A stretch of 64,000 bases of DNA from a virus (taxonomy: Duplodnaviria; Heunggongvirae; Uroviricota; Caudoviricetes): positions 1-64,000 of the IMG/VR virus record IMGVR_UViG_3300027917_003468. One strand, 5' to 3'. The translations under genes and the position numbers were made by a program. The notes under the pieces were generated by a model, which was not told the DNA's origin, searched no databases, and was given only the letters and a program-made list of their open reading frames with translations. Of this stretch, positions 41,214-58,111 are shown piece by piece. Position 1 is the first letter of the stretch; the number at the start of each line of letters is the position of its first letter.

Positions 41214-41912
41214 TTATTTCCTTGGTTTATAAGCTGCAGCAATCTCTTTATCTATTTCACCTGTACCTACTTGAGCTTTGAAAATGGGCTCTTCCCGTTT
41301 TACCCATGGAACTCCAACAGAGGCCAGAACCTGCCGTGCTTCTGTACGTTTTACAGGCATGCAACTCATCCCGGCCATGATTGCTGCAATGGCTCTATCA
41401 AAGGCAATCTTACGTCCGGTAGCTTTACAGAATTTTTGCTTGCCACCAGGAAATTGAGAGACGTGTTCTAATGGTGAACAAATAGAAATGCCTCTGTAAG
41501 TAGCCCCAAAGTAAATAATATCGCATATACATACTACGGGTCTGTTGTTATCATCCCGTAAGAAGAAGAATCTGGGCTTTTTGATGTCTGGATCTTCACT
41601 GTTTGGGTCTACCAGTTCATTCAGGTTATCAGTAGCTTCCTTTATTTCCTCCTTAATATCCCTCCATTTCCTCTCAAGTTCTGTGTATTCCTCAACTGTC
41701 TTTATATGTTGTGTCTGTTCCATCTCTTTCTTAGCCTCTTCCGCATCCTTTTTAAGTCTCGTTACCTTCTGTCTGAGGCTGTCAACTATTGAGTACTTCT
41801 TGATGGTATCTACAATGTGTTTTCGACGTTCTTTTCTCTCCTTTTTTCTTGGGAATTGGGTTGCCTTTGTAGCGTCGTCTTGTGCTTCGACTTTACGCTC
41901 TCCTGGTTCCAT
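41214..41912 (-). CDS. hypothetical coiled-coil protein
   Basis: ORF; promoter-like TTGACA-15-TATAAA on the minus strand at ~42005-41975. Confidence 0.5.
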   Translation of the reverse strand: MEPGERKVEAQDDATKATQFPRKKERKERRKHIVDTIKKYSIVDSLRQKVTRLKKDAEEAKKEMEQTQHIKTVEEYTELERKWRDIKEEIKEATDNLNELVDPNSEDPDIKKPRFFFLRDDNNRPVVCICDIIYFGATYRGISICSPLEHVSQFPGGKQKFCKATGRKIAFDRAIAAIMAGMSCMPVKRTEARQVLASVGVPWVKREEPIFKAQVGTGEIDKEIAAAYKPRK

Positions 41913-42312: not shown

Positions 42313-43134
42313 TTATTCCTCTTCAGCTCCTCCAGGTTCAACGATTTCAATTGGATGTTCCTCTACGGTGGCTTCAATTTCTTTTTCGGGGGGACTCTCA
42401 ATCACTTCCTTTTGCGGCTCTTCCTTTAGCAGTGGATTTCTTAAGATTATCCAGTTCTCATTGATCGTGTAATCAACTTTGAGATCTTTACAGATTGTAT
42501 CTACACTGTGATAATTGTGGATATTAGCCCACAATTCTAGTTTTTCGCCAAAATAATCTGGAATGGTACGTTTTGCAGTAGTAGTTTCCTCGATTTCAGA
42601 AAAGGGCTTCACATCGATATGAACAACGGTTTTCCCAATAAGTAGGCTGCGCCGAAGGAATCTTTCTAGATCCTCTTGCTGTCGTATTACATGCCGTGTG
42701 AAAAGCAGATCAAAAGATTGTGGTGGTGGACGTTTGTAAAGATTTAGTTCGGTAAATGATATGCCAGGATTGTATACTCGTGCCATGGCCAATACAGAGG
42801 GTCTTATATCGAACCCGCTATATTCTACCCCTTTGAGATGTGCTCCATACTCCTTATAGAACAGACCGGCTCCACATCCTAGTTCAGCTACAGATTTAAA
42901 TCCCTCCTTCTTTATAAACTCTACGATGTTTGCGTGATCCTCTTTGATGCCATGCTGATACATCTTGTTGAAATGGTAGAGCATTCCTAGGTGATCCTTA
43001 CAGAGAGTTCCTGGGAATTTTATAGGAATACCTCCACGTTTGATTTGAGGTGGTCGTAGGTTTACTCTGGGGGTTTTTAAAGTCTTTTCACAAGCAGCAC
43101 ATTTGAAAGTTTCTATAGTTTCTATGATCTCCAT
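42313..43134 (-). CDS. class I SAM-dependent methyltransferase
   Basis: Motif I VAELGCGAGLF. Confidence 0.6.
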   Translation of the reverse strand: MEIIETIETFKCAACEKTLKTPRVNLRPPQIKRGGIPIKFPGTLCKDHLGMLYHFNKMYQHGIKEDHANIVEFIKKEGFKSVAELGCGAGLFYKEYGAHLKGVEYSGFDIRPSVLAMARVYNPGISFTELNLYKRPPPQSFDLLFTRHVIRQQEDLERFLRRSLLIGKTVVHIDVKPFSEIEETTTAKRTIPDYFGEKLELWANIHNYHSVDTICKDLKVDYTINENWIILRNPLLKEEPQKEVIESPPEKEIEATVEEHPIEIVEPGGAEEE

Positions 43135-43223
43135 GGTTTTCTCCTTTTAAATTGTATGTTTGTTTCCATTTGAGTAGCGACTTTGACTCTGCCATGTTCC
43201 AGTAAGTAATATTTTCTTGTTTT

Positions 43224-44408
43224 CTATTTCCATTTGTATCCTCTAAAAATAGCGTCTTTATTTACTCTATATATGAATGCGTTTATAAGACGCAATATTT
43301 CTACTAGCACTTCTGTTGTTAGAAGATTAGGTTTGAGGCCAAGATCTAATAGCTTTGTGTGTGTAGGATTGTAATAATGCTTCTCCTTCTCTACTCTGGG
43401 ATTTGGAATATGAGAGATCTTAACTTTCTTGTTTCCTTTACTTATAGTCTCATACGCCTCCTTGACCTTCTCTGCCAGTTCATTCACAGAAAATATCTCG
43501 GTTATCTGGTTATAGATCTCTAATTTTCCTGATTGTGGTGGATTCATTGCTGCTAGGTAAACACACTGCATTGTATCCTTAATGTTCAAGTATCCTCGTG
43601 TCTGACCGCCTTCTCCGTATATGGTAAGAGGATGATCAATCAGTGCTTGAACAAGAAAGCGATTCAAGACAGTACCAAAGACTTCATCATAATGGAAATT
43701 GGTAAGTAGTTCTATATCAATCTCTTTTTTATCCCCATCTTCTCTCATCTCGTCCGTCACAAGGCCGTAGACTGGACCCTGCATTAGGTCTGTAACACGC
43801 AATCCCCAAGTTCTCACGTAAAACCATAACATATCTGTATCCATCACCTTTGTTGTGTGATAAAGACTTCCAGCTGCTCGTGGAAATAAAAGTGTGTCTT
43901 TGCGCCCTTTGTAATCTAACTCAAACCAACCTTCAGGAATATCGACATTAGGTGTACCAAACTCACCCATGGTCCCCAGTTTGATAATGTGACAATTAGG
44001 ATTCGTGTCTTTTACAACATATGCGACATTTAAAGTACTGACAAGATTGTTTCGTAAGGTTTGCTCAGCACGTTTTCTGTCAATCATAGACCATGGACCC
44101 GATGGTTGTTCAGCATAATGTATAACAGCTTCGGGTTGGCAATACTCAAATACTCCTCGTAAAAAATCGTAATCAGTAACGTCACCGATTTCTAGTCCAA
44201 TTACTGTATTACTATCTGCTGAAGTATTCCAATGTTTTACTCGTTGATGAAGATTGGGGTTAGGAATAAGAGCTTCTACATCCAGATCCCTCGAAGCATT
44301 ACGTCTGAAATAGTTATCAACACCATAAACTGAATGTCCTCGTTTTGCGAAGTACATTGCAGTTGGCCACCCAAGATATCCGTCCATTCCTAGTATTAAG
44401 ATTCGCAT
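43224..44408 (-). CDS. NAD-dependent sugar epimerase/dehydratase, SQD1/SqdB-like (UDP-sulfoquinovose synthase family)
   Basis: GMDGYLG Rossmann motif; YHTTK catalytic motif; ~394 aa; WGLRVTDLMQGPVYG resembles SQD1. Confidence 0.6.
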   Translation of the reverse strand: MRILILGMDGYLGWPTAMYFAKRGHSVYGVDNYFRRNASRDLDVEALIPNPNLHQRVKHWNTSADSNTVIGLEIGDVTDYDFLRGVFEYCQPEAVIHYAEQPSGPWSMIDRKRAEQTLRNNLVSTLNVAYVVKDTNPNCHIIKLGTMGEFGTPNVDIPEGWFELDYKGRKDTLLFPRAAGSLYHTTKVMDTDMLWFYVRTWGLRVTDLMQGPVYGLVTDEMREDGDKKEIDIELLTNFHYDEVFGTVLNRFLVQALIDHPLTIYGEGGQTRGYLNIKDTMQCVYLAAMNPPQSGKLEIYNQITEIFSVNELAEKVKEAYETISKGNKKVKISHIPNPRVEKEKHYYNPTHTKLLDLGLKPNLLTTEVLVEILRLINAFIYRVNKDAIFRGYKWK

Positions 44409-45187
44409 TTGTTTTTGCTCTCCCGATTTTTAGTAACTCTTTTAGATTCTTCGATGAATTGCTGTAGCTTCTCAGCCGCTGCTTTTGGCCCGAGTTTGGG
44501 ATGCGCCATTAGTCGTTGGAATTGTCGTCTGTTATAGTGGCTTCCTTTCCCTTTTGAGTTCTTTCCTTGATAAGTACTTGTTCCATCACCACGAACCTTG
44601 ATTAATGCTTTATGTTCGTCAGTTTTTCCAAATGACCAACGCATATGCTCGATTAGTACACCTTTCACTAATGCTGTTCTATTGATGAGCTGGGCAGTTT
44701 GTGTGAACCAGTTATCGATTCCGTGAAAAGGGAGTGGAGGCGCATAATAACCGACGGCCCTTACCCAATTTTGATGAACAAATCCGTGTGTGCCCCAGTA
44801 TTGGTAATTCTTCCATCCATCGTTTGTCCATACATATTTTATTCTATCTAGAGGTTTCATGAATCGTGCTATGATTTGAGAATCCCAATTACGAGTCCTG
44901 AATACAATGTCATCAGATGAAAGCATGAGGATGTCACCAGTTGCTTTTTTGTAGGCTTCGTTCCACATATCACTTCCATTCTCCTGATGTGGGCCTATTG
45001 TACCAGTAACATTGGCATGTTCTGTTTGCATCTCATTAAATTTTTCAATTCCAACTTCATCGTCCTCGTCCAAATAGAATACTATCTCTAGATTTTCAGG
45101 GGCATGAGCCGTCTCTATTGCTGAGCCCCACACGCCATCCATATTCTTAGGACGCCCACGAGTAGGGGTGAGAAGTGATATTCTCAT
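44396..45187 (-). CDS. GT-A-like glycosyltransferase (putative)
   Basis: LLTPTRGRP N-terminus and DD motifs. Confidence 0.4.
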   Translation of the reverse strand: MRISLLTPTRGRPKNMDGVWGSAIETAHAPENLEIVFYLDEDDEVGIEKFNEMQTEHANVTGTIGPHQENGSDMWNEAYKKATGDILMLSSDDIVFRTRNWDSQIIARFMKPLDRIKYVWTNDGWKNYQYWGTHGFVHQNWVRAVGYYAPPLPFHGIDNWFTQTAQLINRTALVKGVLIEHMRWSFGKTDEHKALIKVRGDGTSTYQGKNSKGKGSHYNRRQFQRLMAHPKLGPKAAAEKLQQFIEESKRVTKNRESKNKCES

Positions 45188-46149
45188 TATTTGTTCTCCT
45201 TTAATTTTGGAAGGTTCAGGTGCTCAGTAATAGTTGTTAATATTACCTCAACGATATTCTGCCAGTTAAGATGAATAACACCTTGTCTTATTTTGGCTAC
45301 ATCGATATTTTCTATGGCATGTATAAAGGCAGACTCTAATGAATCAAAGCGATGTGCTGCAAAATGTTGTAAGCCTTTTAATAATTCTGGATTGATATAA
45401 CTTTTATTTGCTAAGAATAGTTGAGCTCCACACATTGAACTTTCTATTACAGAGAGACCTAGCGTTTCTTTGTGGGTGGGGCAGAAAAGGTGAGCTCTTC
45501 GGTAGTAAGGAAGATATACTTCATCCCAAGGCCCTGAGATACGTTTCGGTTTTCGATAGTTGTTGACATCATGGACTGTAGGATCTTCAAGGATCTTCAG
45601 TTCTAGCGTTATTCCTTTAGAGGCTACTTTTTCGAGAGCTTTGAAGTAACGCTCATATATCTTATAATTCTCTTTATTAGAGATATGGTCGAGCAGTATA
45701 CTAATGCGGTCGGTGGGCTGATTAGGCATACATCTCTTTGGATCTGCAGCCCAACTGATCTTTGTATCTCCGTAAGTTTCCAACATTGCAAATGCATGCT
45801 CATATTTCTTTGATTTTCTTGTAGATCCATTGACGGTATATATTTTCTTACTTCTAACTTTATTTAATAGTGGCTTCATGAATTTATCGTTCGCATATAA
45901 TTTACCAAACTTACGACTGCTGGAGAGTGGTTTGCAAGAAAGGATAGCATCTGCTTTAGGAAGAGCTTTTATTCGATTGATTACCTGTTTGCTATTTAGC
46001 GTTGGCCACTTTGCAATATCTTCCCTTGTAACTTCAATACCACGGCGTTCTAATTCCTCACAGATGAAGAATGAGGTGTTGCTGCTAAAGTTTTTAATAT
46101 CCTTCAGGGAACTGGCTTTTCCGTCGGATAGGAATATTATCCTTTTCAT
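45187..46149 (-). CDS. GT-B (family 1/4-like) glycosyltransferase
   Basis: C-terminal GLSVIESSMCGAQLF motif. Confidence 0.5.
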   Translation of the reverse strand: MKRIIFLSDGKASSLKDIKNFSSNTSFFICEELERRGIEVTREDIAKWPTLNSKQVINRIKALPKADAILSCKPLSSSRKFGKLYANDKFMKPLLNKVRSKKIYTVNGSTRKSKKYEHAFAMLETYGDTKISWAADPKRCMPNQPTDRISILLDHISNKENYKIYERYFKALEKVASKGITLELKILEDPTVHDVNNYRKPKRISGPWDEVYLPYYRRAHLFCPTHKETLGLSVIESSMCGAQLFLANKSYINPELLKGLQHFAAHRFDSLESAFIHAIENIDVAKIRQGVIHLNWQNIVEVILTTITEHLNLPKLKENK

Positions 46150-46766
46150 TTACCCACTCCCTTTAAGAGATAGAGATTACAGCTAGTAATTGGAGGTTTG
46201 CTCCATGTCCAAACTCTGGCTTGAGTATAGAACTTCTTGCAATGTTCATAAAAGGAATTATCAAGTACGCACGAAGGATGCCATAGATTTTTTGGCACAT
46301 AGTAAAGTTGTTTGTAGATTTCTGGCATACTGTTTACGTAAGACCAATTACTCTTCAAGAATATATCACTGATTATGGTGTTCATCCCAATAGTGGTTAT
46401 GACTATGTTGTGTAATAATATATGATCCATCATTCCATATTCACCAATTGGGTTGTGTGTATATATATAATCATAAGTTTTAGCTCTTATAGTTTTTTCT
46501 ATATGCTTCGCTAGTTCCTTGAGTTCTCCTCTACGAGCATCAACTTTGTAAAAGGCAGAATCATAGGCAAGACATGTGCAAGGAATCTTTAATGATTTGC
46601 AAAGATCAAATAGGGAGTATTTTCTTTTAGCGCACCAGGACCTATTGGGATTTCTCTCATCGCTAGCGCATATTAAGATTTCCTTCTCGCAGTCCTTGTT
46701 CTGTAATATAGGCCAACCGAAGATTATTTCGTCGTCAGGATGTGCCAGTACCATTAAAACCTTCAT
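46146..46766 (-). CDS. PIG-L/LmbE-family deacetylase (paralog of 17344..17949)
   Basis: MVLAHPDDEIIFGWP. Confidence 0.65.
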   Translation of the reverse strand: MKVLMVLAHPDDEIIFGWPILQNKDCEKEILICASDERNPNRSWCAKRKYSLFDLCKSLKIPCTCLAYDSAFYKVDARRGELKELAKHIEKTIRAKTYDYIYTHNPIGEYGMMDHILLHNIVITTIGMNTIISDIFLKSNWSYVNSMPEIYKQLYYVPKNLWHPSCVLDNSFYEHCKKFYTQARVWTWSKPPITSCNLYLLKGVGK

Positions 46767-46772
46767 GATAGA

Positions 46773-47573
46773 CTAACTCCTAAATTTCTGATCCTGCTTC
46801 TCCATTATAGGTTTATAAAAATCTTGTACTTTTTTATGCCCTACATGGAGTACTATCTCGTCTCCAATACCAGCATGTTTTTTGCAGACACACCATTGAG
46901 GAGGAAGTACATACGGATTGAAGTTATGACCTGATTCATATGTAGCTCGCCACAGTGCGATTGTTCCTCGTCCTGTTTGTTTCCTGTGTTTCATGTAGCA
47001 TTCTAAAAATTGAAGTGCTTTTGAATTGGTAGGATCTGTAGCCATGAAACCATTATTTACTGCTAATCCATAGCCCCCAGTTCCATCCAGTATCTTATCA
47101 CTATCTGCCCCAACTAAAGTATCTGTTTTAACCAAAAATCTTGGGTTGAGAGGAAAGCACACTCCAAATCGTTCAACTAAAGGTATGATCATTTTAACAG
47201 CATCAGAAATAACATATAGATCGGCATCCGCAGCAATTGCAATTTTATGTTCTGAATTTGCTAGTCCATATGCTCTAAAATATGAACTCGCTCTCCAACC
47301 ATATCGAGGATGAGATGGATCAAATGGAACAACTGGTCGAACAATCTCAATATTTGACTTATTAAGAGAATACCAGGGCTTCGATAATGAGATGTCTTCA
47401 AATAAAAGATCGGTATAAATAGTTAATCTCATATCGGGAAAATAACGCAGCATTGTTTTTAGTGTTGGGTTGAACCTATCATGTTTGGATAGATTTGCAT
47501 CCCCACTATTACGACGCCGCCTACCAAATTCCGACATTATTAAGTTAATCACTTTTCGATCCACCATACACAA
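46773..47573 (-). CDS. hypothetical (DxD-containing, possible glycosyltransferase)
   Basis: AADADLYV motif only. Confidence 0.35.
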   Translation of the reverse strand: MCMVDRKVINLIMSEFGRRRRNSGDANLSKHDRFNPTLKTMLRYFPDMRLTIYTDLLFEDISLSKPWYSLNKSNIEIVRPVVPFDPSHPRYGWRASSYFRAYGLANSEHKIAIAADADLYVISDAVKMIIPLVERFGVCFPLNPRFLVKTDTLVGADSDKILDGTGGYGLAVNNGFMATDPTNSKALQFLECYMKHRKQTGRGTIALWRATYESGHNFNPYVLPPQWCVCKKHAGIGDEIVLHVGHKKVQDFYKPIMEKQDQKFRS

Positions 47574-48118
47574 TTGTCTTCGATGTTAATTGTGTGCGTA
47601 CTTTCAAAAGCTTCATGTACAGCTTTTGCTACGCCCCAGTTACGTTCTGCTTCACGATTTTTGTAGTCGTGCCCTGCTAAGATTCCTCCTTTTCTAATCT
47701 TGGGCAACCATAAACTAATATCAAGTCTAACTGATTCATAGTGGTGGTCGGCGTCAATGAAAGCCCAATCGAATATTTCATCCTTAAATAGCTTACTAGC
47801 TTCTTCACTGGAAAGGCATAAGTATGAAATCTTTGGAGGTGCGTCTTTATATCTCTCACTAAGTCCAGTAATAAATTGTTGATAGGATTCAATATTCCCG
47901 CCTCCCTTTTGTTCTTTTGTTCTACCATAAGGATCAATACCAATAATAGTTTTCAGGTTGGGTAGATTCTTGTATAGACCGAAGAGATTAAGCGCTCGAT
48001 TCACACCAACCTCCACTCCGTATTCATGGTTACGATCCTTGAGTAAATTTTCCAATACTTCCCAACGTATCAATGGAGACATTGTGTAACTCCTTTTATT
48101 TTTCAATCCACCACACAA
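47549..48118 (-). CDS. TylF/MycF-type (Methyltransf_24-like) class I O-methyltransferase
   Basis: VEVGVNRA; FIDADHHYESVRLDISLWLP; tandem paralog of the next gene. Confidence 0.6.
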   Translation of the reverse strand: MCGGLKNKRSYTMSPLIRWEVLENLLKDRNHEYGVEVGVNRALNLFGLYKNLPNLKTIIGIDPYGRTKEQKGGGNIESYQQFITGLSERYKDAPPKISYLCLSSEEASKLFKDEIFDWAFIDADHHYESVRLDISLWLPKIRKGGILAGHDYKNREAERNWGVAKAVHEAFESTHTINIEDNCVWWIEK

Positions 48119-48605
48119 AATCGTCTTCTAGTTGAATATTATAATTACTATCTAATACTTCATGAACCGCCTGTCTAACTCTCCAACCACGTTCCTTCTC
48201 ATGCCTGTTATAATCATGCCCAATAAGAAGCCCTCTAGTTTTGACTTTAGGAAGCCACGCTAAAATATCTGCTTTAACAGCTTTATAAGTGTGATCACCA
48301 TCTATAAAAATGAAATCGAATATTTCATTTGCAAAGAGAGTAGCAGCTCTAATACTAGATAACTTAATAATGGACAATCTTATTTGGGGATGTTTGATAA
48401 GTTCTCTGAGTACTGTCTGATAACTTTTTTGGTTTCCTGGTTCTCCAGTAGGTGCTTTGTACGGATCAACACCAATAATCCTTTCTAGTTTTGGTAATCG
48501 TTGGGCTATATATATTATATTCCTCCCTTGATTAACTCCAATTTCCACTCCTAATTTATGACATCTAGATGTTAATAACTCCGTAAGAACTTCCCATCGT
48601 TTCAT
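48096..48605 (-). CDS. TylF/MycF-type O-methyltransferase (tandem paralog)
   Basis: VEIGVNQG; FIDGDHTYKAVKADILAWLP. Confidence 0.6.
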   Translation of the reverse strand: MKRWEVLTELLTSRCHKLGVEIGVNQGRNIIYIAQRLPKLERIIGVDPYKAPTGEPGNQKSYQTVLRELIKHPQIRLSIIKLSSIRAATLFANEIFDFIFIDGDHTYKAVKADILAWLPKVKTRGLLIGHDYNRHEKERGWRVRQAVHEVLDSNYNIQLEDDFVWWIEK

Positions 48606-48608
48606 TAG

Positions 48609-49436
48609 TTAACTCCTAGGATCAAACTTGAAAATTTTGGAGGAGAGTGCTGCTAGTTCACTATAGTTATTGAGTAGTTTCCAATCGCTATTGTCCAGAG
48701 TTTTCCAGCGAGATAATGTTTGCATTTTTTTAGCATTGTTTTGAAATTTGAATCTGTCAAAAGAAGATCCCATACTACTGACACGATTGATACCTTTGTC
48801 AGAGAATGGTTCTTCGATATATTTTGAAATCAGCTGGCGATATTCTTGATCCTTGCAAAATTGGTTGTAACTAACTGCAAACCAATCTTCTGTTGGATCC
48901 AAGAAAAATGTCTTTGCATATTGAATCCACAGCTCTATTCTTCTACGAGCTCTACCTTCTTCTAGTTCTTGCTGATCAACTTTTACTATACCTGTTTTCC
49001 AGCTCGCAAACCAATTGAATGGATCTCGTAAAATAACCAAAGCGTATTTTTTAGTTTTTCTTCTCCCTGTATCACCTTTCAATTTAGTTGGATCTCTACA
49101 AATATCTGTTTGACTGCGATATGTGTAGCGTTCTTGCTCTTTGCAGCTTCCGTTTTCGTAGCTAATAATTTGCGTACTGCCGTGTTTTGGTGTGGGAAAG
49201 GGAATACGCAATTTTGGTTCGGGCAATTTGTATCGTGGGCCATCTATATTGTAGCGTTGATCACTCAAGTAATTATTTAGGAATATATGGTGCCGTCTTA
49301 ATGTAGTATCAAGAGTTCGAGAGTCTAATCGCAAGAAGTTCTTTGGAAACGTGTGGTAGTAATGGCCAAATAAAAATTCAGTTAGTGCATGATTACCACA
49401 TCTAGAAATTCCCCATACAAAAATCTCTTTTAACAT
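48609..49436 (-). CDS. hypothetical; weak resemblance to sulfotransferase 5'-PSB P-loop (GISRCGNHAL)
   Basis: Motif-level only. Confidence 0.3.
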   Translation of the reverse strand: MLKEIFVWGISRCGNHALTEFLFGHYYHTFPKNFLRLDSRTLDTTLRRHHIFLNNYLSDQRYNIDGPRYKLPEPKLRIPFPTPKHGSTQIISYENGSCKEQERYTYRSQTDICRDPTKLKGDTGRRKTKKYALVILRDPFNWFASWKTGIVKVDQQELEEGRARRRIELWIQYAKTFFLDPTEDWFAVSYNQFCKDQEYRQLISKYIEEPFSDKGINRVSSMGSSFDRFKFQNNAKKMQTLSRWKTLDNSDWKLLNNYSELAALSSKIFKFDPRS

Positions 49437-49437
49437 T

Positions 49438-50199
49438 TTAGGCTTCCAATTTCAATCTTTTAAGTTCTTTTTGGAATATCTCTAAATTTTTCCACTTGCT
49501 TTCTTTATGCCCGTGCCAAACTTCTGACTCTTTATTAAGAAAGCCGTCATTCAGTGATAGCGGTAAAGCTTTGAATTTCATTTTCCTCTTTTCAAGGCAC
49601 TGTTTAAGAAGAAGTTGATCTCCTGATACGGATCTACCCTTAGAACGGGGGCGCATAAAATTAGTAATTTGAGATTCCATCAGCTGTTGCCACTCCTGTA
49701 CAAAAGCTAATACATTGTCATTGTGCCCAAATCCTACTAGTCCTGTTGCATAATGTTTATCTTTAGGCATATAAGGTCGGTAGAGGCACGTAATCTCAGC
49801 TTTGTTTTCTATCATGTTTTGAATACGAGTAATTTTCTTTCGTATCAGGACATCAACATCGAAGTAAATGAGAGGTTTTTGCTGTTCTTGGAGCGTCTTT
49901 AAAATATGTGCTCCCTTTGTGGCCATGAGCCAACCTTTATAGTGCTGTTGTGAGTAAGCACTGAAATCTTCTTTTCTTTCTGTAAATATAATTGAAGGAT
50001 TAAGCTGTAATAACTGCTGTTTAAAATCTTCTGGGAAATTTACAGCATAAAAATGAACTGCTTCGTTAGGATGCTGCATATGAAGACTCTCGGCCATAAT
50101 TAGAGTAAACTGTTTGTAGAGAGGAGTATCGTCTTTCTTGGGACCTTTGTATGCCCAGTTGTGAGGACTATTAATTCCTAGGAATGCAATAAAAGACAT
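49438..50199 (-). CDS. hypothetical (DVD motif, possible nucleotide-sugar transferase)
   Basis: YFDVDVL. Confidence 0.35.
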   Translation of the reverse strand: MSFIAFLGINSPHNWAYKGPKKDDTPLYKQFTLIMAESLHMQHPNEAVHFYAVNFPEDFKQQLLQLNPSIIFTERKEDFSAYSQQHYKGWLMATKGAHILKTLQEQQKPLIYFDVDVLIRKKITRIQNMIENKAEITCLYRPYMPKDKHYATGLVGFGHNDNVLAFVQEWQQLMESQITNFMRPRSKGRSVSGDQLLLKQCLEKRKMKFKALPLSLNDGFLNKESEVWHGHKESKWKNLEIFQKELKRLKLEA

Positions 50200-50214
50200 T
50201 ACTCGCTCGCTCCC

Positions 50215-51096
50215 TTACAGGTCTAAAGTCTCTTTGAACATTTTACGATAGTTTTCAGCTTGTATTTCCCATGACCACGCAGTTTCTGCTGTTTTTCTAG
50301 CTTCCCAACCCATACGCTTAACTGCCTGTTTATTATACCTGAAATACTTGAGTTTTTCAACGTACTCTGGAATTGCCAGCGATATTTGAAATCCGTTAAC
50401 ACCGTCTATAATAAATTCAGGCATATTACCAATAGAATTAGAAATAAGAGGTCTGCCGGTTGCAGCAGCTTCTAGTGCAGGATTCGGAGTACCATCAATG
50501 GTACTTGCTACTAAATATAGATCAATAGTTCGGTAAAATTCTGGGATTGTAATAATAGGATCAGCGTCTTTCCATGATTTGGTGAATGTCCTTAACTCTA
50601 CACCAGGAACCTTTCGGATAGCAGGAATTATGAATCTCCTTAATCCTTTTTCTGGCATTGGCTTTCCCAGGTAACCAACAACTATATTCGGGTTTCGTGT
50701 GGGCTCCTGATATTTAAATAAAGTACAATCAACACCATTTGGAGTGTAGTAAATCCTCTCATGCCGCCCATCCAATGCTCTAGTCAGTATACGACTATTA
50801 ACATGTAAACCTGCACAAACATCATTAAAATTCTTCTGTCCGATATGTTTCCTAAGAGCAAGATGTCCTGTGATCCCAGTCAGTTTACGATTTCTATCTA
50901 TATTCTGGATATATCTCAGATGGACAGGAGTGTAGGTGAGGTAGATATCATATTCATCTTTAATTCTGCTATTCAACTCCAGGTATTGAATTTGTACATC
51001 AAATTCATCGGAAAGATATTTTTGTAGGTAGCGGCTCTTTATTCCCCATGCCCATTGTGGAACATCTGGCATAAGTAAAATCTTTGGTTTCTTCAT
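50215..51096 (-). CDS. GT-B family-1-like glycosyltransferase (start at internal Met MKKPKIL)
   Basis: EAAATGRPLISNSIGNMPEFIIDGVNGF motif; start trimmed to remove a 152-nt overlap. Confidence 0.6.
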   Translation of the reverse strand: MKKPKILLMPDVPQWAWGIKSRYLQKYLSDEFDVQIQYLELNSRIKDEYDIYLTYTPVHLRYIQNIDRNRKLTGITGHLALRKHIGQKNFNDVCAGLHVNSRILTRALDGRHERIYYTPNGVDCTLFKYQEPTRNPNIVVGYLGKPMPEKGLRRFIIPAIRKVPGVELRTFTKSWKDADPIITIPEFYRTIDLYLVASTIDGTPNPALEAAATGRPLISNSIGNMPEFIIDGVNGFQISLAIPEYVEKLKYFRYNKQAVKRMGWEARKTAETAWSWEIQAENYRKMFKETLDL

Positions 51097-51100
51097 ACTA

Positions 51101-51847
51101 TTACCTAGCAATATACTCAAGCAGTTTTCTATTAGGATCTTTTTTACTTTTATCTCTACCTTCCTTGCCTTTGAAATGAATAATGTAAGGATGATGTATG
51201 AGCCACTCTGGTTTGTAGCAATTATACTTTTCGCAGGGAAGCTTTTGTACATTCATGGAAAGAAATTCAGGTTCTTCCATCAAATGCAAGAAGATGTTTT
51301 GTTCGTATTGACCTGTGTTATCAGGGACGTGCTTCTTAATCTTTGCCCACTTATTCCAAAGAGTTTCAGTCTGATTGGACAGACGCCAGAATACAACTCC
51401 TAAATTAGGATAGGCATCTTTGTGCTTGCGGAATTTTAGAATATAGCTTGAATCTTTACGTACTGTTAAAACAATCTCTGCATTAGGATCGATGTCTGGA
51501 AATTGTCCGTCTGCGATAGCCGTATCAGCATCTAGTTGTAGAATAGCTCCCTTTCGATCTATTCTTTTAATTGTTCTTAGAAATTCTACTCGATTATTTA
51601 TGATCATCTTATACTGAGGAGATTGTGTTCTGAAGGTTCCTTTATTCTTGTGAGGGAGGTCAATAACACTTACTTTATACTTATGTACTAAGAGCTCAAT
51701 TTCGCTCTCTGATAGTCCCACATCCCCTATAAATATCTGCTTTCGGTCTACATCAAATTTCCACAGGGACTCTAACAGTATCTTCAAGAATCTGATTACG
51801 TTATGACTGGCGATGATTCCTATTGAGTAGTCATGGATCGTTTTCAT
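51101..51847 (-). CDS. hypothetical (DAD motif; possible glycosyltransferase)
   Basis: LQLDADTAI. Confidence 0.4.
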   Translation of the reverse strand: MKTIHDYSIGIIASHNVIRFLKILLESLWKFDVDRKQIFIGDVGLSESEIELLVHKYKVSVIDLPHKNKGTFRTQSPQYKMIINNRVEFLRTIKRIDRKGAILQLDADTAIADGQFPDIDPNAEIVLTVRKDSSYILKFRKHKDAYPNLGVVFWRLSNQTETLWNKWAKIKKHVPDNTGQYEQNIFLHLMEEPEFLSMNVQKLPCEKYNCYKPEWLIHHPYIIHFKGKEGRDKSKKDPNRKLLEYIAR

Positions 51848-52854
51848 ATATACTTCTTCATACTTGCAATAAATTCTTTAGCCCTGATTTCTGTGGTGTG
51901 TCGTTCTAAAATGAGAGAATAGCCATTTCGGGTTATTTGTTCTAATTGGGAAGAAGCTAGCCATTTTTTAATCAAGATTTTAGAGTTATCCGTGTGCTTT
52001 ATCTCAATCATATTCTTACCAGGTACAAAACCAAGTTCTCCTAATTCAGGAATAAAGTCTGAGCATAAAGCAGTAGCACATGCAGGGATTTCAAAAAGTT
52101 TCATAACAGGATAGCCAAACCGAGAAGTACAACCAACCGCAATTTTGCATTCATTCAGTAGTCTTGCATAATCAATGCCTGATGGCCATGCTCTACCTTT
52201 TCCTGGCATTCTCTCGGAAGGCCGCTCGATTCGTTTATAAAAAGAGGCATTCTTCAATTCTTTGTCAATCTTGGCTCGAATGGGATAAACTTTGGAGTTA
52301 TTTATACCGGTAGAAAGGCACCCAATAGGTTTTTGGCGTCCATAGTCTCTAAATACCTCCCACGGAATTGAATGTGGTAACCAAATAATTGAATGGTTAT
52401 TTAAATAGGGGTGGAACTTCTTTGTGGCATTTTTATATCGCATGCAGAATATATTAAATTTGAAGTTGTTGTGGGCTTGTTCTACATATCGTCGTACCAT
52501 TGGCCCATGTTGATCTTCTATGAGTATTGCTTTGGGTATTTTAATATCTTTCCACCTTTCAGACATGAACCCAAAAATAGCATCTGTAAAAACTAAATCG
52601 TAATCATTAACCGTATCTAAATTTATCATAGAGGGTAATTTACGTCCCTGCATGACAACTTGCCTACAAAATGTACCTGCTACCGTATCGGGTTTTCGAA
52701 TAACAAAATCTACATGAACTAATTGTCTTACTGCTTGTTGTAATCCGGCAAATATATGAGAAGCAACTCGATTCGTTCTATCTATTGTCAGCCATAATAT
52801 CTTCATATCTATTTCCCAATCCTTACATTCCATTTTTTGTAGAAACGATCCCAA
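51844..52854 (-). CDS. CgeB-like/DUF3880-like glycosyltransferase-family protein (paralog of 20699..21826)
   Basis: LFEIPACATALCSDFIPELGELGFVPGKNMIEI. Confidence 0.5.
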   Translation of the reverse strand: MGSFLQKMECKDWEIDMKILWLTIDRTNRVASHIFAGLQQAVRQLVHVDFVIRKPDTVAGTFCRQVVMQGRKLPSMINLDTVNDYDLVFTDAIFGFMSERWKDIKIPKAILIEDQHGPMVRRYVEQAHNNFKFNIFCMRYKNATKKFHPYLNNHSIIWLPHSIPWEVFRDYGRQKPIGCLSTGINNSKVYPIRAKIDKELKNASFYKRIERPSERMPGKGRAWPSGIDYARLLNECKIAVGCTSRFGYPVMKLFEIPACATALCSDFIPELGELGFVPGKNMIEIKHTDNSKILIKKWLASSQLEQITRNGYSLILERHTTEIRAKEFIASMKKYI

Positions 52855-53621
52855 CTTCTTTTTGCGTGTTCTGCGTTGTGCCTAATCTTTTTGTACTTCG
52901 GATTCTTCTCATTTGGGTTATAAGCAGCGTAACCTCCTATGTTGAGGTATCCAATCTTCCAGTTAGCTTTTTTCATTTGCATACAGAAATCCATATCTCC
53001 CCATCCAATGTAGTAGTTTTTATCGAGATCACATTTATCGAATACTTCTTTTCGTATCATCATTGTAGCAGAACCTACCCCATCTAACTGTCCGAACGGT
53101 TTTGGAGCGGGTCTATTTAGAAGACGATCACCTTCTAATCTAGCTGTCATTGATGGAGGTCGACAAGATAAGGCAACAGCACCAAATTGGGACTTTCTTT
53201 CAAGTATAGAGGCTAAAACCTCTACTGCATAAGGTGGAAGAATAATGTCATCATCCAAAGTCATGATATAAGGAGTGCCAAAATGCTGACGGGCTCTAGT
53301 AACAACATCATTTCTTGGAACTCCAGAACCATGATTTCTATGTGTGAATTGTAGATCATATGCCCTGTAATATTTAGTAAGTGTTTGTACAAGCTTGATT
53401 TTGAAAGCTAGTGGCATAACTTCCGCAGCTTGTACACGTAGGCAAAGATACAATGGGGTCTTTATTGCTTTGTGAGTATTCTCCAATTGTTTGAATAATA
53501 GTTCGTAACGATAAAGTGATAGTGTGGCCATTGTAACAAGTGGTTCTTTTGCTTCTGCTATTTTCATTATAGTATTGGGATTTAGCCCTTCCCACTTCTT
53601 AGCCAATTCTTTAATTTCCAC
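52809..53621 (-). CDS. family-2-like glycosyltransferase
   Basis: MTLDDDIILP DxD motif; PRNDVVTRAR. Confidence 0.55.
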   Translation of the reverse strand: MEIKELAKKWEGLNPNTIMKIAEAKEPLVTMATLSLYRYELLFKQLENTHKAIKTPLYLCLRVQAAEVMPLAFKIKLVQTLTKYYRAYDLQFTHRNHGSGVPRNDVVTRARQHFGTPYIMTLDDDIILPPYAVEVLASILERKSQFGAVALSCRPPSMTARLEGDRLLNRPAPKPFGQLDGVGSATMMIRKEVFDKCDLDKNYYIGWGDMDFCMQMKKANWKIGYLNIGGYAAYNPNEKNPKYKKIRHNAEHAKRSWDRFYKKWNVRIGK

Positions 53622-54238
53622 TAAATATCCTTCCGATCCATTGCTTTACCGAATGATTTTTGCTGAGTTCTTACTAGAATCTTTCTTACCCAATGAATTT
53701 TATCTTTAGGTAATTCCTGGTACATGGCCAGGAGAAAATCGTAGTCTCCTGCGATTCCACTTTTACAGAGATGGATATGCTTGTTATAGAGCTCTTTCTT
53801 GGAACAGTAATTGAAGGATCCAATCAGGCCCCGAGCTGGGACGGTACCAAATCTATAATCGATAGGGGGCAAAGAGTATTCGATCTCAGAAAAGTACCCT
53901 CTCCATAAGATAAGACTAGGAGCATACTGCTGATCGAGGAATTTAAGAAGGGCAATGAAACCATGATTTGTAATTTCGTCGTCATCATCCAGAACCATAA
54001 TAAATTTTCCATGGCTTAAATCTTTCTTTTCATTTAATAACTGATCTGCCCATGCCAATCCCTTTCCTATTTTATCCTCTAATATTATATGCTCGTAATC
54101 CGCATCTGTTTGCATTTCCACAGAGGCAATGCAGCGGTGGAGGCAATTAGGCTTTTTATAGGCTCTTGTGATAATCGTTAAGAAGGGCTGCTTATCCAGG
54201 GGAGCAGCTTTTCCTCTATGACATTTGATATCAAGCAT
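53621..54238 (-). CDS. GT-A-like glycosyltransferase-family protein (paralog of 25211..25837)
   Basis: Aligned by eye to the 25211 protein; start placed at the Met just before LDKQPF. Confidence 0.5.
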   Translation of the reverse strand: MLDIKCHRGKAAPLDKQPFLTIITRAYKKPNCLHRCIASVEMQTDADYEHIILEDKIGKGLAWADQLLNEKKDLSHGKFIMVLDDDDEITNHGFIALLKFLDQQYAPSLILWRGYFSEIEYSLPPIDYRFGTVPARGLIGSFNYCSKKELYNKHIHLCKSGIAGDYDFLLAMYQELPKDKIHWVRKILVRTQQKSFGKAMDRKDI

Positions 54239-54804
54239 TTTCGCCCTTCTAAATCTCTGATGTGGATGTAGTAGACAATATGAGGATGCGTAGCTTCTAT
54301 CAGATTCAAGAGTCCACATATTGTAAAATAGACTTTATATTTATTTATTGCACTAGGGGGTGACAGAGGATCTTCGGGGGTATCGAGTAGTGGTGATAAG
54401 CAAAAGATAATATCATAAGTCTTTTTTGCATGTTCCACTCCTTTTGTAATATATTTCCAAACTTCTCGGGTCTCTACATTATGTTCAGAGAAGGTAAGAA
54501 AATATGCTACATTATCAAGTGTTGTCCTGTCAGAAACAAATCCGTACTTCTTATGTTTCCTTTCCCAATATACTTTCTTGTTTATCAAGCTCGACTGAAA
54601 TTCAAAGTTATCTTTCCTTGCCAATTCCAAGTCACCTTTATATACTGTATTGATTAATCTTCTAGTTTGATTCAAATAAGTATATTTAAATCCGTATTTT
54701 TCTACTATGTAATTAGCGGAAACTGTTTTCCCCGAACCTTGTCCCCCACAGAATGCGACACACAGTTTTGGATCCTCCCTATAGACACCTGTTTTTTCCC
54801 GCAC
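54178..54804 (-). CDS. P-loop nucleoside/nucleotide kinase-like protein
   Basis: Walker A CGGQGSGKTV. Confidence 0.45.
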   Translation of the reverse strand: MREKTGVYREDPKLCVAFCGGQGSGKTVSANYIVEKYGFKYTYLNQTRRLINTVYKGDLELARKDNFEFQSSLINKKVYWERKHKKYGFVSDRTTLDNVAYFLTFSEHNVETREVWKYITKGVEHAKKTYDIIFCLSPLLDTPEDPLSPPSAINKYKVYFTICGLLNLIEATHPHIVYYIHIRDLEGRKCLISNVIEEKLLPWISSPS

Positions 54805-55141
54805 GGCCCAATGCCTCCTCTATTTTTGTTGTAAGCAGTGAAATCCTTTCCAGCTTGATTATTAGCATAGCAGAATAATTTATGACATCTATGAGCTCAG
54901 AAATAGCTTCTGTAGATAAAGAGCGATTATCCTCATCAGGATCATAGGTACCATGCTTCCTTACACCATCCCTGAATTTCTGCACTGCCAATCCATGTAT
55001 ACGATGGAACTCTCTCTCGATATCTTCTTCTAGTACTCTATCTAATTTCTCATTAATGATATTAGTAGTTCTTCGTATACTATAACCAAGAACAGATTTT
55101 AATGGAGTTTGTCTTAATAGGTGTTTTATGAAATTAAACAT
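54779..55141 (-). CDS. hypothetical protein
   Basis: ORF. Confidence 0.35.
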   Translation of the reverse strand: MFNFIKHLLRQTPLKSVLGYSIRRTTNIINEKLDRVLEEDIEREFHRIHGLAVQKFRDGVRKHGTYDPDEDNRSLSTEAISELIDVINYSAMLIIKLERISLLTTKIEEALGRAGKNRCL

Positions 55142-55149
55142 AATAAATC

Positions 55150-55938
55150 CTACAGTGGCACATTAAATCCACTTGCTTGTTTATGCCCACCGCCTCCATA
55201 TTTTACAGCTATTTCGGAAACATCGATATCTGAACGGGATCGGAGTGAGAATATACGTTTCTCTCCATGGTCATAGTATACAACACCGAATGTGCCGATC
55301 TCTGCTAGTTTCCCTGCAATCTCGCTTTGATAGAGTGGACAATTAACAGCTTTTACCTGATGACCATCTATAACTATATCCCTCTTATTGATAGCTACAA
55401 GCCGATCTACATTCATATCAATGTGCCTCATGATTGCGGTACCGTCACTTATTAATTGCCCGATAGACGCATTCCCGCCTTCGATGAGTGTATCCCAAAC
55501 TTTAAAATCAAATGGATAACTACCAAGTCCATAAGTTACTTCTCTGGAGTTAGGAAGATCAAATTTCCACAGGTCTCGATCTTCGATATATTGAATTAAT
55601 GGTGGAATTTCTAGTCCCGGCATAAAAAGTATCCATGCCATAACAGCACCTGCCCGATCCGAAAATTTACAGTATGGTAAATCTTCGAGAACTGTTTTGG
55701 CTGAAATGTGGTGATCAAGTACGGTTAGAGATTTGGCAATGGAATGTATCTTTTCTATTTCTTCACGTTCAAAACTGAAGTCGAGTATATAGACGTCGTT
55801 GTCTTTACAAATATCGAATTTAGGAGGCTCGCCATACTGCCAGGAGTAGTATTCTGCTTTGGATCCAAACTTTTTCCATGCACAATAGGCAGCACCAAAA
55901 CCATCAGCATCCCGGTGATAAATTATTATTGTACTCAT
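55150..55938 (-). CDS. DHH/DHHA1 phosphoesterase (NrnA-like nanoRNase / pAp phosphatase candidate)
   Basis: HRDADGFGAAY (DHH motif I); VLDHH; C-terminal GGGGH. Confidence 0.65.
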   Translation of the reverse strand: MSTIIIYHRDADGFGAAYCAWKKFGSKAEYYSWQYGEPPKFDICKDNDVYILDFSFEREEIEKIHSIAKSLTVLDHHISAKTVLEDLPYCKFSDRAGAVMAWILFMPGLEIPPLIQYIEDRDLWKFDLPNSREVTYGLGSYPFDFKVWDTLIEGGNASIGQLISDGTAIMRHIDMNVDRLVAINKRDIVIDGHQVKAVNCPLYQSEIAGKLAEIGTFGVVYYDHGEKRIFSLRSRSDIDVSEIAVKYGGGGHKQASGFNVPL

Positions 55939-57016: not shown

Positions 57017-57514
57017 TTATACAAAATCATCAAATTTTTCTTCTTCATCATCGTTAAATGACATGGATTGTGTAAGGATTTCAATGGCTTTATTCTCACA
57101 TTGTCGTATGTACTCCCTTGTGACTCCACGTTTTTTGCCGATCTCGTCCAGGGTTTTGTCACGATAGTAATATCTTTCAACAAGTATTTCTAACAACTTC
57201 TTTTGTTTTGGTTTGAAAAAGTGTTCTAGATAAGTAAATGCCTTATCACTGGTCTCAAACTTATCTAACATTGGTTTGAGGTCCTTATATTTGTTATCTA
57301 AAATTTCTACTCTTTTTGGCACTTTCGTTACCTCCTCTAATACTTCTCTACACGGTTTACAAATGCCTTTCTGATTTTTCATGATCACTTTGTCACAGAT
57401 ATCGCAATATTCGATAGGATTGGTTTTCCGTCGATGAAACCATCTGTAGCATATGATACACAGATCGAAGGCATAGAGCTCCTTATCCTTATGGCACCAC
57501 CAACATTTTGCCAT
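57017..57514 (-). CDS. sigma-70 region-4-like regulator with N-terminal Cys4 zinc ribbon
   Basis: CWWC..C..C..C..C; C-terminal RGVTREYIRQCENKAIEIL HTH. Confidence 0.55.
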   Translation of the reverse strand: MAKCWWCHKDKELYAFDLCIICYRWFHRRKTNPIEYCDICDKVIMKNQKGICKPCREVLEEVTKVPKRVEILDNKYKDLKPMLDKFETSDKAFTYLEHFFKPKQKKLLEILVERYYYRDKTLDEIGKKRGVTREYIRQCENKAIEILTQSMSFNDDEEEKFDDFV

Positions 57515-58002: not shown

Positions 58003-58042
58003 TACCTCCTTTTAAATATCAGAACAGTTCACAAATTCGGAT

Positions 58043-58071: not shown

Positions 58072-58111
58072 GAATATAGTTTTGCAACAAAAATAAATAA
58101 AAAGGTGGCGT

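Follow-up and report, generated by a model that had tools for sequence, protein, structure and literature searches.

A tailed-phage gene cluster with a UDP-sulfoquinovose synthase homologue and a sulfotransferase-fold protein, and its predicted sulfur-bearing glycan

Organization of the cluster

The window analyzed here is a 64,000-nucleotide stretch of DNA from an uncultivated tailed phage (IMG/VR record IMGVR_UViG_3300027917_003468, positions 1 to 64,000), which is part of a 78,120-bp metagenomic contig (ENA ERZ27279932, k141_3111640). Its interval 42313-55938 carries a sugar-modification cluster that includes a homologue of the uridine diphosphate (UDP)-sulfoquinovose synthases SQD1 and SqdB and a protein of the sulfotransferase fold. 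A cluster of about 13 kb was proposed at this place in a preliminary description made from the sequence alone, and it is real: the interval consists of 18 co-oriented minus-strand open reading frames (ORFs), between which no overlap or gap exceeds 89 nt, and both edges are true ORF boundaries, the end of a methyltransferase ORF at 42313 and the start of the DHH ORF at 55938. All cluster genes described below are on the minus strand. The mechanically called ORF starts are too far upstream in some genes, for which the gene calls are 50215-51120, 53621-54238, 47549-48082 and 46773-47567.

The G+C content of the interval is 0.37-0.40, the same as that of the flanking DNA, so the interval is not an assembly chimera. 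No near-identical DNA of the cluster was found among 50,697 phage genomes searched. Five terminator-like sites were counted in the interval versus 12 expected from shuffled sequence, and the promoter and terminator counts were at or below chance, apart from one promoter-like pair at 58042-58087. This pair, the only convincing one, lies in the divergent gap between the minus-strand block and the structural genes.

The main loci used for comparison are L007 (JGI 3300070897, 20.8 kb), L001 (Logan SRR11241200), L141 (JGI 3300028920), the unrelated phage contig L142 and the cellular loci L143 and L144. L009 is the same contig as the window, running beyond window position 64000.

The UDP-sulfoquinovose synthase homologue

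The gene at 43224-44408 encodes a 394-aa homologue of UDP-sulfoquinovose synthases of the SQD1/SqdB/Agl3 type, which belongs to a bacterial 'EQPS' clade. It matches the UDP-sulfoquinovose synthase model NF041015 from end to end with 450.8 bits, and other models of short-chain dehydrogenases/reductases (SDRs) gave no more than 36 bits (28.9 for GalE). Residues 2-394 align with residues 3-383 of Arabidopsis SQD1 (1qrr) with 394 bits and 47% identity, and the next PDB matches are UDP-glucuronate decarboxylases with 37 bits. The protein, described earlier as SQD1/SqdB-like, groups with SQD1 and not with UDP-glucose 4-epimerases.

T146, Y183, H184 and K187 are invariant in an alignment of 10 sequences. 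H184 corresponds to the SQD1-specific His183 beside the Tyr, for which a role is reported with the SQD1 structure. The GxxGxxG motif and the GTMGE segment are also kept. The catalytic triad of SQD1 and Agl3 consists of Thr145, Tyr182 and Lys186 (PMC4388408). UDP-sulfoquinovose is the likely product of the enzyme, judging from its sequence. Bacterial homologues are about 63% identical to it; the closest cellular ones, with 60-66% identity, belong to Jettenia/Brocadiia, Thermodesulfobacterium, Desulfobacterota, Nitrospirae and other non-phototrophs of this sort.

The sulfotransferase-fold protein

The protein encoded at 48609-49436 has no Pfam, NCBIfam or PHROG match, and a word-indexed search found only 12 close homologues. 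The AlphaFold model made from the alignment of these homologues had a pLDDT of 90.2, and the top 50 PDB matches of the model in Foldseek were all PAP(S)-binding enzymes of the sulfotransferase fold. The earlier, weak call of a sulfotransferase-like P-loop protein is therefore borne out at the level of the fold. Strand 2-9 is followed by a loop with the motif R12-S/C-G14-N-H16, similar to a 5'-phosphosulfate-binding (5'-PSB) loop, and then by a helix; R12, G14 and H16 are invariant. A motif like the 3'-phosphate-binding (3'-PB) motif is formed by R137-D-P after strand 128-136 and by S145, which is located eight residues on in helix 139-153. Arg and Ser are spaced in this way in the 3'-PB motif of SULT1E1. 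Among 64 diverse family members, R137 does not vary and S145 hardly does. The invariant E94 ends strand 88-94 and could act as a base, as a Glu does in NST, 3-OST and TPST.

A full scan with a hidden Markov model found 2,903 representative relatives of this family at E <=0.001. Some family members are fused to GT2, GT8 or GT9 glycosyltransferase domains, so a carbohydrate-modifying role fits. Sulfotransfer_1 was matched in only 1 of the 64 family members, where the matched domain was not established, and an hhalign comparison of the family with a Sulfotransfer_2 protein of L001 gave nothing. On its modelled fold and its motifs, the 48609-49436 product is a sulfotransferase-fold protein of a large family without a Pfam model, for which sequence links to known sulfotransferases are absent. 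A metagenome scan with the family found 27 loci, none of which had SqdB, and the pairing of SqdB with the sulfotransferase-like protein is thus specific to this lineage.

Glycosyltransferases, deacetylase and methyltransferases

The six or more glycosyltransferases counted earlier can be extended to eight or nine. Four of them score above Pfam cut-offs: a GT4 enzyme of the GT-B fold at 50215-51120 (Glyco_trans_1_4 40.5 bits, Glycos_transf_1 34.6 bits), a nucleotide-diphospho-sugar transferase of the GT-A fold at 51101-51847 (PF03407 37.6 bits, cut-off 22), a GT-B enzyme at 51844-52854 (Glyco_trans_1_2, PF13524 44.3 bits, cut-off 25) and a GT2 enzyme at 53621-54238 (PF00535 27.3 bits, cut-off 23.3). 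The GT4 enzyme also has weak C-terminal NCBIfam matches to BshA, MshA and Agl16 (E 6.2e-07 for Agl16) and has orthologues in L007, L141 and L142. The protein at 44396-45187 is a GT-A/GT2-like glycosyltransferase by PHROG (phrog_14945 'glycosyltransferase', E 2.3e-31), with a GT2 score of 22.8 bits just below the cut-off, and in Pelagibacter and Streptomyces phages its homologues carry the annotation glycosyltransferase.

The protein at 46773-47567 had no family match and is a glycosyltransferase by fold. Its AlphaFold2 model (pLDDT 92.4) has alpha-1,3-GalT, ABO GTA/GTB, LARGE1 and XXYLT1 as top Foldseek matches with E 1e-8, and D116-x-D118 is invariant. It belongs to a family without a Pfam model, is assigned on the model as a retaining GT-A-fold glycosyltransferase (the GT-A enzyme below), and is the most conserved gene of the cluster, being present in L001, L007, L141 and L142.

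The assignments of the remaining transferases are weaker. The 49438-50199 product is a probable GT-A transferase similar to GT8/Nucleotid_trans (PF03407 21.1 bits with a cut-off of 22, PF01501 19.4 bits), and its homologue comes after the sulfotransferase-like gene in L007. The 52809-53621 product is a possible GT-A transferase with sub-threshold matches only (Glyco_tranf_2_3 19.8, TAGT 17.3 and GT2 16.5 bits) and has a 51% identical homologue in L007. The conserved protein at 45187-46149, only suspected to be a transferase and possibly of the GT-B type, has no family assignment: searches of Pfam, NCBIfam and PDB gave no match, and its only hit is phrog_2518 of unknown function (E 8.6e-07). 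Its homologues are present in the related clusters of L007 (30%) and L141 (25%).

The LmbE deacetylase named earlier is confirmed as a PIG-L/LmbE-family de-N-acetylase at 46146-46766, with a PF02585 score of 37.1 bits (cut-off 28.2) and the metal-binding motif AHPDDE ('LAHPDDE' is residues 7-13). Its orthologues are found in L001, L007, L141 and L142. Two S-adenosylmethionine (SAM) methyltransferases of the Methyltransf_24 family are encoded side by side at 47549-48082 (PF13578 51.3 bits) and 48096-48605 (PF13578 70.6 bits). They are paralogues with 48% identity, and the second is probably a sugar O-methyltransferase. These two are indeed methyltransferases, but the TylF type given to them earlier found no TylF match. 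The second has a sub-threshold match to RMNT_CmcI (CmcI/rhamnosyl-O-methyltransferase), Methyltransf_3 also gave a sub-threshold match, and the search of a Methyltransf_24 enzyme against PDB gave one weak match (6g7d, E 0.0075). The third methyltransferase of the cluster, at 42313-43134, is a class I SAM-dependent enzyme (Methyltransf_11 29.3 bits, cut-off 21.2), which also scores above the cut-offs of Methyltransf_12 and Methyltransf_25.

Further genes of this kind are located elsewhere in the window. A paralogue of the Glyco_trans_1_2 enzyme of 51844-52854 (37% identical) lies at 20699-21826 (-), a GT2 paralogue of 53621-54238 (45% identical) at 25211-25837 (+), a radical SAM gene within 19628-21826 (-) and a GT32/Caps_synth-like transferase gene at 30500-31261 (-). 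A second PIG-L gene and, directly downstream of it, a gene for an LpxD-like UDP-3-O-acylglucosamine N-acyltransferase (NF002060 252.6 bits, cut-off 207) lie at 16372-17949 (-). This deacetylate-then-N-acylate pair suggests that the phage makes an N-acylated amino sugar or a lipid A-like product.

The kinase and DHH genes

The last three ORFs of the interval differ from the sugar genes. The P-loop kinase at 54178-54804 (AAA_28, PF13521 30.9 bits) was earlier called a nucleoside/APS-like kinase; it is a P-loop kinase but not an adenosine 5'-phosphosulfate (APS) kinase. PF01583 (APS_kinase) gave no match, Pfam gave AAA_28/AAA_17 only and NCBIfam gave nothing, and only a P-loop stretch of 23 residues could be aligned with the genuine APS kinase of L141. 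The protein matches phrog_2107 'thymidylate kinase' with E 1.8e-13, and its best PDB match is adenylate kinase with E 0.056. Its only phage relative (25% identity, E 7e-4) is encoded near a dCMP hydroxymethylase gene.

The gene at 55150-55938 encodes a 262-aa DHH/DHHA1 phosphoesterase of a common phage family (phrog_4771, E 1.1e-75), with PF01368 and PF02272 scores of 27.1 and 28.3 bits and the motifs 'LDHH' and 'GGGGH'. It had been regarded as an NrnA-like phosphatase of 3'-phosphoadenosine 5'-phosphate (pAp). The DHH and DHHA1 domains are present, but the protein scores 23.6 bits against the NrnA equivalog NF053633, whose cut-off is 350. Homologues of phrog_4771 were counted in 104 phage records, among them those of Caulobacter, Vibrio and Pseudomonas phages, and in the three neighbourhoods inspected they were beside DNA polymerase/primase genes or among early genes, without sulfation genes. 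Because of this wide phage distribution, a pAp phosphatase reading, though biochemically possible, was rejected as evidence of sulfation. Thus neither pAp hydrolysis nor an APS-like kinase, on which a sulfation pathway using 3'-phosphoadenosine 5'-phosphosulfate (PAPS) had been propped earlier, is supported. The DHH gene probably functions in nucleotide or oligonucleotide metabolism, judging from its family.

Between these two genes, a 120-aa ORF at 54779-55141 has a sub-threshold DUF1599 match (21.6 bits versus 25). Full-length phage DHH proteins have its counterpart as their C-terminal part, and in L007 (345 aa) it is fused to the DHH domain. The DHH gene and the 120-aa ORF are in different frames, and the DHH proteins of other phages have 337-349 aa; 54779-55938 is either a split gene or a frameshift. 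The three genes of 54178-55938 look like an adjacent block for nucleotide metabolism, with membership in the sugar pathway not demonstrated. That the kinase and DHH genes are adjacent to the cluster in L007 as well is explained by shared ancestry.

Related clusters and distribution

L007 is syntenic with the window over the whole block, from the DHH gene to SqdB (55% identical) and then RlaP. It contains the DHH and kinase genes, six homologous transferase genes, the GT-A gene, the sulfotransferase-like gene, PIG-L and SqdB. L001 keeps the GT-A enzyme, PIG-L and SqdB (78% identical) and has a Sulfotransfer_2 gene directly upstream of sqdB (32.9 bits, cut-off 22). L141 shares the GT-A enzyme (54%), PIG-L (58%), GT4, the 45187-like gene and an SQD1-like gene (35%, with Tyr-His-x-x-Lys kept), and three genes away from the latter is a gene for a genuine APS kinase (E 1.3e-41 to APK1). 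The cluster family has thus come to sulfate activation or transfer repeatedly, with three proteins that are unrelated to each other, which is the strongest comparative argument that the clusters sulfate their product besides making a sulfo-sugar. The core of GT4, GT-A enzyme and PIG-L is present in the window, L007, L141, L142 and L143. A 232-aa protein without a family match, which has a charged N-terminus and a Cys-containing C-terminal domain, is encoded at 41214-41912 (-) and is kept just downstream of the cluster in L001 (49%) and L007 (30%).

A tblastn search of SqdB against phage isolates found only epimerases of about 24% identity, and no homologues of the sulfotransferase-like or GT-A genes were found in phage isolates. 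In IMG/VR, an exact-pattern scan for SqdB found nothing, and an alignment-based scan found SqdB-like genes on 23 loci, most of them 39-53% identical in the best aligned segment. None of the 23 loci had sulfotransferase-like or GT-A genes. On 8 IMG/VR contigs (L010, L011 and L013-L018), the SqdB-like gene is preceded upstream, within about 1.5 kb, by a Methyltransf_24 homologue, which hints at a recurrent pairing of SqdB and methyltransferase in viral contigs. A solitary putative UDP-sulfoquinovose synthase was reported on a Mu-like viral contig from the Cariaco Basin (PMC7785012).

Large sugar clusters with members of the GT-A or sulfotransferase-like families are present on two other probable phage contigs. 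One (ENA ERZ28576367, 24 kb) has PhoH, ClpP, two GT4, AsnB-like, radical SAM, methyltransferase and DegT genes and a faint PIG-L match. On the other (JGI 3300025133, 316 kb), a GT4-tubulin fusion is encoded beside a sulfotransferase-like gene.

Proposed pathway

The cluster most likely makes a sulfur-bearing, methylated glycan. In the preliminary description, a sulfated and/or O-methylated phage glycan was suggested; the core of this idea is strengthened by the SQD1 family, the sulfotransferase fold and the relatives of the cluster, and its kinase and DHH props are not supported. We read 42313-54238 as a cytoplasmic pathway that would make a sulfo-sugar donor and build an anionic, partly O-methylated oligosaccharide on virion proteins, and give this reading a probability of about 0.5. 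From the families and folds of the enzymes, the conservation of the cluster and the predicted solubility of its products, we infer the following steps, all of which go beyond the family assignments.

The SQD1/SqdB homologue would convert UDP-glucose of the host, together with sulfite, into UDP-sulfoquinovose. The GT4 enzyme would transfer GlcNAc, which PIG-L would de-N-acetylate to GlcN; this paired role is suggested by the conserved core of GT4, GT-A enzyme and PIG-L, as in the mycothiol, bacillithiol and glycosylphosphatidylinositol (GPI) pathways. The retaining GT-A enzyme and five to six further GT-A/GT-B transferases would extend the chain, one of them using UDP-sulfoquinovose. With host PAPS as donor, the 48609-49436 protein may then sulfate a hydroxyl or the freed amine; in the second case, the scheme would resemble the way in which heparan sulfate is made by its N-deacetylase/N-sulfotransferase. 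The two Methyltransf_24 enzymes and the third methyltransferase would cap hydroxyls. As the least certain step, the product would decorate virion proteins as a negatively charged glycan coat.

Target of the pathway and alternative explanations

In a Kyte-Doolittle scan, all 18 cluster proteins came out without a transmembrane segment, and the ORFs of the window that were flagged as membrane proteins are short (101-205 aa), mostly antisense and not plausible membrane genes. The scanned ORFs of the window gave no match to a Pfam family of a priming phosphoglycosyltransferase, flippase, polymerase, ligase or oligosaccharyltransferase. Since the 18 proteins are predicted to be soluble and a flippase, polymerase, ligase and oligosaccharyltransferase were not found, the acceptor is most likely a cytoplasmic phage protein. 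Among such proteins, virion proteins are favoured by several observations, and we place them tentatively, at a little under even odds, as the target. In L142, the trio of GT-A enzyme, PIG-L and GT4 is inside the head-gene block, after the terminase, decoration and presumed capsid genes and before the genes for a Mu-F-like minor capsid protein and a tail terminator. On the contig of the window, an ORF of 290 aa that lies two genes beyond that for the major capsid protein (L009:14595-15467) has sub-threshold GT2/Anp1 matches and may be a glycosyltransferase inside the head module. A 176-aa protein at L009:20333-20863 ends in about 50 residues of almost pure serine, encoded by mixed AGT/TCN codons, and is a candidate O-glycan acceptor. 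Its paralogue at L009:19852-20244 has no serine tract; both genes are on the side of the structural module, about 9 kb past position 64000. The poly-Ser protein domain had no match in phage isolates. By analogy, mycobacteriophage virions are reportedly glycosylated by phage glycosyltransferases. Capsid glycans encoded by chloroviruses are likewise said to carry methylated sugars.

Several points weigh against the proposed pathway. No activity, glycan or acceptor was observed. Genes for sulfate activation or sulfite formation were not found on the examined parts of the contig, which with 78 kb is maybe an incomplete genome. The end of the cluster is about 2 kb from the structural module and divergent to it, not within it. 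In the sulfotransferase-fold protein, the 5'-PSB-like loop R-S/C-G-N-H has Arg for the canonical Lys and is without Thr-Thr, and profile searches of PDB with 12 and with 64 family members gave no match. The score of the SQD1 homologue, 450.8 bits, is below the NF041015 equivalog cut-off of 575, and no member of the 'EQPS' clade is shown in this analysis to make UDP-sulfoquinovose. The R101A mutation inactivates Agl3, where the Arg is within AEQRSAP (PMC4388408), and the phage enzyme has Pro102 (AEQPSGP) at this Arg101 position of Agl3 and SQD1. The Pro is shared by 119 of the 120 closest homologues and by 70 of 80 genome loci, including metagenome-assembled genomes (MAGs) of Rhizobiaceae.

These last points could mean that the SQD1-like enzyme is not a UDP-sulfoquinovose synthase, and that the 'EQPS' clade uses related 4-keto/5,6-ene chemistry to make another C6-modified UDP-hexose. 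A sulfate ester would then be the only sulfur of the glycan; this concerns one step of the pathway and fits any target. The nearest cellular homologues being in non-phototrophs (Jettenia, Desulfobacterota, Nitrospirae) also speaks for it, and we know of no sulfoquinovose glycoconjugate reported from these groups. However, the remaining catalytic residues do not vary, nor do the SQD1-specific His and GTMGE, and the protein is 47% identical to SQD1 end to end with no domain change. The Pro102 position appears by alignment to match Lys84 of GalE, which contacts the NAD ribose, and would be a position that varies among extended SDRs. The Pro type is also found in Rhizobiaceae MAGs, and sqdB has been tied genetically to sulfolipid synthesis in Sinorhizobium. 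We regard this alternative as rather improbable.

The main rival of the virion as target is the host envelope. The enzymes would construct or modify a surface glycoconjugate, such as lipopolysaccharide (LPS)/O-antigen, capsule, exopolysaccharide (EPS) or S-layer glycan, on a lipid carrier of the host, whose flippase and ligase would export it; this might, for instance, prevent superinfection or change the cell surface in the course of infection. Cyanophage P-SSM2 is said to carry an LPS-like gene cluster. The phage of the window itself has the LpxD-like gene beside the second PIG-L gene, the GT32/Caps_synth-like gene, more glycosyltransferases and a radical SAM gene, which count against virion proteins, as does the occurrence of the GT-A family in a cellular locus with a Wzx-type flippase and EpsG (L144). 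The trio of GT4, GT-A enzyme and PIG-L is found in a cellular locus too (L143). The sulfoquinovose glycoconjugates that are known, for instance the N-glycan that Sulfolobus makes with Agl3 (PMC4388408), belong to the cell surface, and this was counted for the envelope as well. Envelope remodelling is a serious candidate but the less likely one: the cluster proteins are without predicted membrane segments, the priming and export families listed above were not found, and the core trio of L142 sits among head genes.

Two other readings are far less probable. The cluster might serve sulfolipid metabolism, with SqdB and a GT4 (SqdX/SQD2-like) or GT8-like (SqdD-like) enzyme making sulfoquinovosyl-diacylglycerol inside the infected cell, for example to spare phosphate for phage DNA, and with the other genes serving an unrelated glycan. 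Known sulfoquinovose transferases are GT4 (SQD2, SqdX, Agl16) and GT8 (SqdD) enzymes, and the cluster has a GT4 enzyme with the weak Agl16 match and a weak GT8-like gene. The solitary viral synthase was also reported as an auxiliary metabolic gene (PMC7785012). However, no SqdX, SQD2 or SqdD model scored above noise, sqdB is among about 14 other glycan genes and conserved together with them in L007 and L001, and the sulfotransferase, deacetylase and methyltransferases have no role in sulfolipid synthesis, which makes this explanation very improbable. DNA hypermodification, an option raised earlier, is the least supported target of all and is given the smallest chance here. The transferases would glycosylate hydroxymethylated bases, which would then be sulfated or methylated, and the kinase and DHH/DUF1599 proteins would act on modified nucleotides. 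The TAGT match (17.3 versus 27.5 bits), the DUF1599 match ('nucleotide modification associated domain 1'), the dCMP hydroxymethylase gene near the kinase's only phage relative and the order of DHH, kinase and glycosyltransferase genes kept in L007 point in this direction. Against them, all the supporting family matches are below cut-offs, the scanned ORFs included no thymidylate-synthase-like hydroxymethylase, TET/JBP or aGPT-Pplase, and the core trio of L142 lies among head genes. The DNA glycosylations known to us involve one to three sugars, never eight or nine transferases with a deacetylase and a sulfoquinovose synthase.

Genomic setting

The structural genes lie on the far side of the divergent gap from the cluster. 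The large terminase gene at 58855-61710 (+) encodes 951 aa with an internal LAGLIDADG/intein-like insert, and residues 381-621 of the insert-bearing protein have a ribonucleotide-reductase-like PHROG match. The portal gene follows at 61724-63334 (+); its protein shares only about 26% identity with the portal proteins of 108-122-kb Pseudomonas, Rhizobium and Escherichia phages. The major capsid gene lies just past the window end (L009:13283-14071), and a second intein-bearing gene of the structural module was found at L009:15802-17232 (Intein_splicing).

On the other side of the cluster, an orthologue of Ro60 (TROVE and Ro60 vWA) is encoded at 38620-40233 (-), an RlaP nucleotidyltransferase at 37489-38328 (-), an HD-domain protein at 36712-37392 (-) and a CCA-adding enzyme at 35850-36731 (-), and ten tRNA genes lie at 24816-37515 (-). 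The genes of 35850-40233 (-) with the ten tRNA genes form an RNA repair and quality-control module of the phage. No Y RNA candidate near the Ro60 gene reached the Rfam gathering threshold. Other genes of the window encode a sigma-54 enhancer-binding-type activator at 14630-15664 (-), which has Sigma54_activat (205 bits) and HTH_8 without a receiver domain, two sigma-factor-like proteins at 8023-9231 (-) and 57017-57514 (-), an IS110-family transposase-like protein at 6544-7497 (-), a free-standing LAGLIDADG endonuclease at 2986-3951 (+), an SPFH/Band 7 protein at 10312-11178 (-) and a circularly permuted YpsA SLOG protein at 26439-26933 (-).

Significance

Phage-encoded virion glycosylation is a recent discovery, which so far involves neutral sugars and one to a few transferases. 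Sugar clusters of phages, glycosylation of virions and a lone viral sqdB are already known. The literature searched has no description of a conserved phage cluster in which a sulfoquinovose synthase homologue and a sulfotransferase-like protein from a family with no model are combined with a deacetylase, three methyltransferases and eight or nine transferases, and among sequenced phage isolates no comparable sulfur-bearing sugar chemistry was found. In its fullest form, our proposal is that the virion proteins of this phage lineage bear a coat of O-linked glycan, in which the C-S bonded sulfonate sugar sulfoquinovose is combined with sulfate esters or N-sulfate and with O-methyl caps, all made by phage enzymes in the cytoplasm. 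Put together in this way it is speculative and, we think, unlikely to hold in every part; the poly-serine tail of the structural-module protein is a possible acceptor of such a glycan.

If true, a viral glycan with sulfate or sulfonate would be known for the first time from outside the eukaryotic viruses, a bacterial virus would be seen to use sulfoquinovose for the first time, and the sulfotransferase family of about 2,900 clusters would receive its founding functional assignment. A cluster of about 15 genes would extend the glycan chemistry of phages to strongly anionic, heparin-like surfaces, which would bear on adsorption, evasion of immunity or predators, and particle stability. The cluster is also a concrete handle on a very large uncharacterised family of sulfotransferase-fold proteins. 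The Pro-type SQD1 clade is widespread in non-phototrophic bacteria, and whether it makes sulfoquinovose matters for the sulfoquinovose part of the sulfur cycle.

Comparison with known systems

With SQD1, SqdB and Agl3, the phage protein has in common the full-length architecture of extended SDRs, the catalytic Thr and the Tyr-His-x-x-Lys motif. It differs in being phage-encoded, in an insertion of 5-9 residues found only in the phage copies, and in the location of its gene, which is within a multi-transferase glycan cluster and not beside sqdX or sqdD. The viral gene from the Cariaco Basin is a lone auxiliary gene proposed to alter host N-glycosylation (PMC7785012), whereas sqdB of the window would act within a conserved cluster of many enzymes, a sulfotransferase-fold protein among them.

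The sulfotransferase-fold protein has an N-terminal strand-loop-helix at the place of the phosphate-binding loop of PAPS-dependent sulfotransferases (SULTs, TPST, the NST and 3-OST of heparan sulfate, the sulfotransferase domain of CurM/OLS, and Stf0). The loop of the phage protein is R-S/C-G-N-H and theirs is K-x-G-T-T, and the phage protein belongs to a separate family of about 2,900 representative clusters without sequence similarity to Pfam or PDB entries. The conserved core of GT4 and PIG-L is comparable to the pairs MshA/MshB of mycothiol, BshA/BshB of bacillithiol and PIG-A/PIG-L of GPI synthesis. However, the phage genes are not orthologues of these, with scores far below the equivalog cut-offs, and the pair of the phage clusters is always joined by the retaining GT-A enzyme.

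Compared with surface polysaccharide loci that depend on Wzx/Wzy or ABC transporters, the cluster gave no sign of their polytopic membrane proteins. It resembles the systems of mycobacteriophages Che8 and Corndog and of chloroviruses, in which soluble glycosyltransferases and methyltransferases are likewise encoded by the virus, without host secretory or periplasmic machinery. The phage cluster is divergent to the structural genes and not inside them. With about 15 genes it is far larger than those systems, to which it adds a predicted sulfo-sugar synthase, a sulfotransferase-fold protein and a deacetylase.

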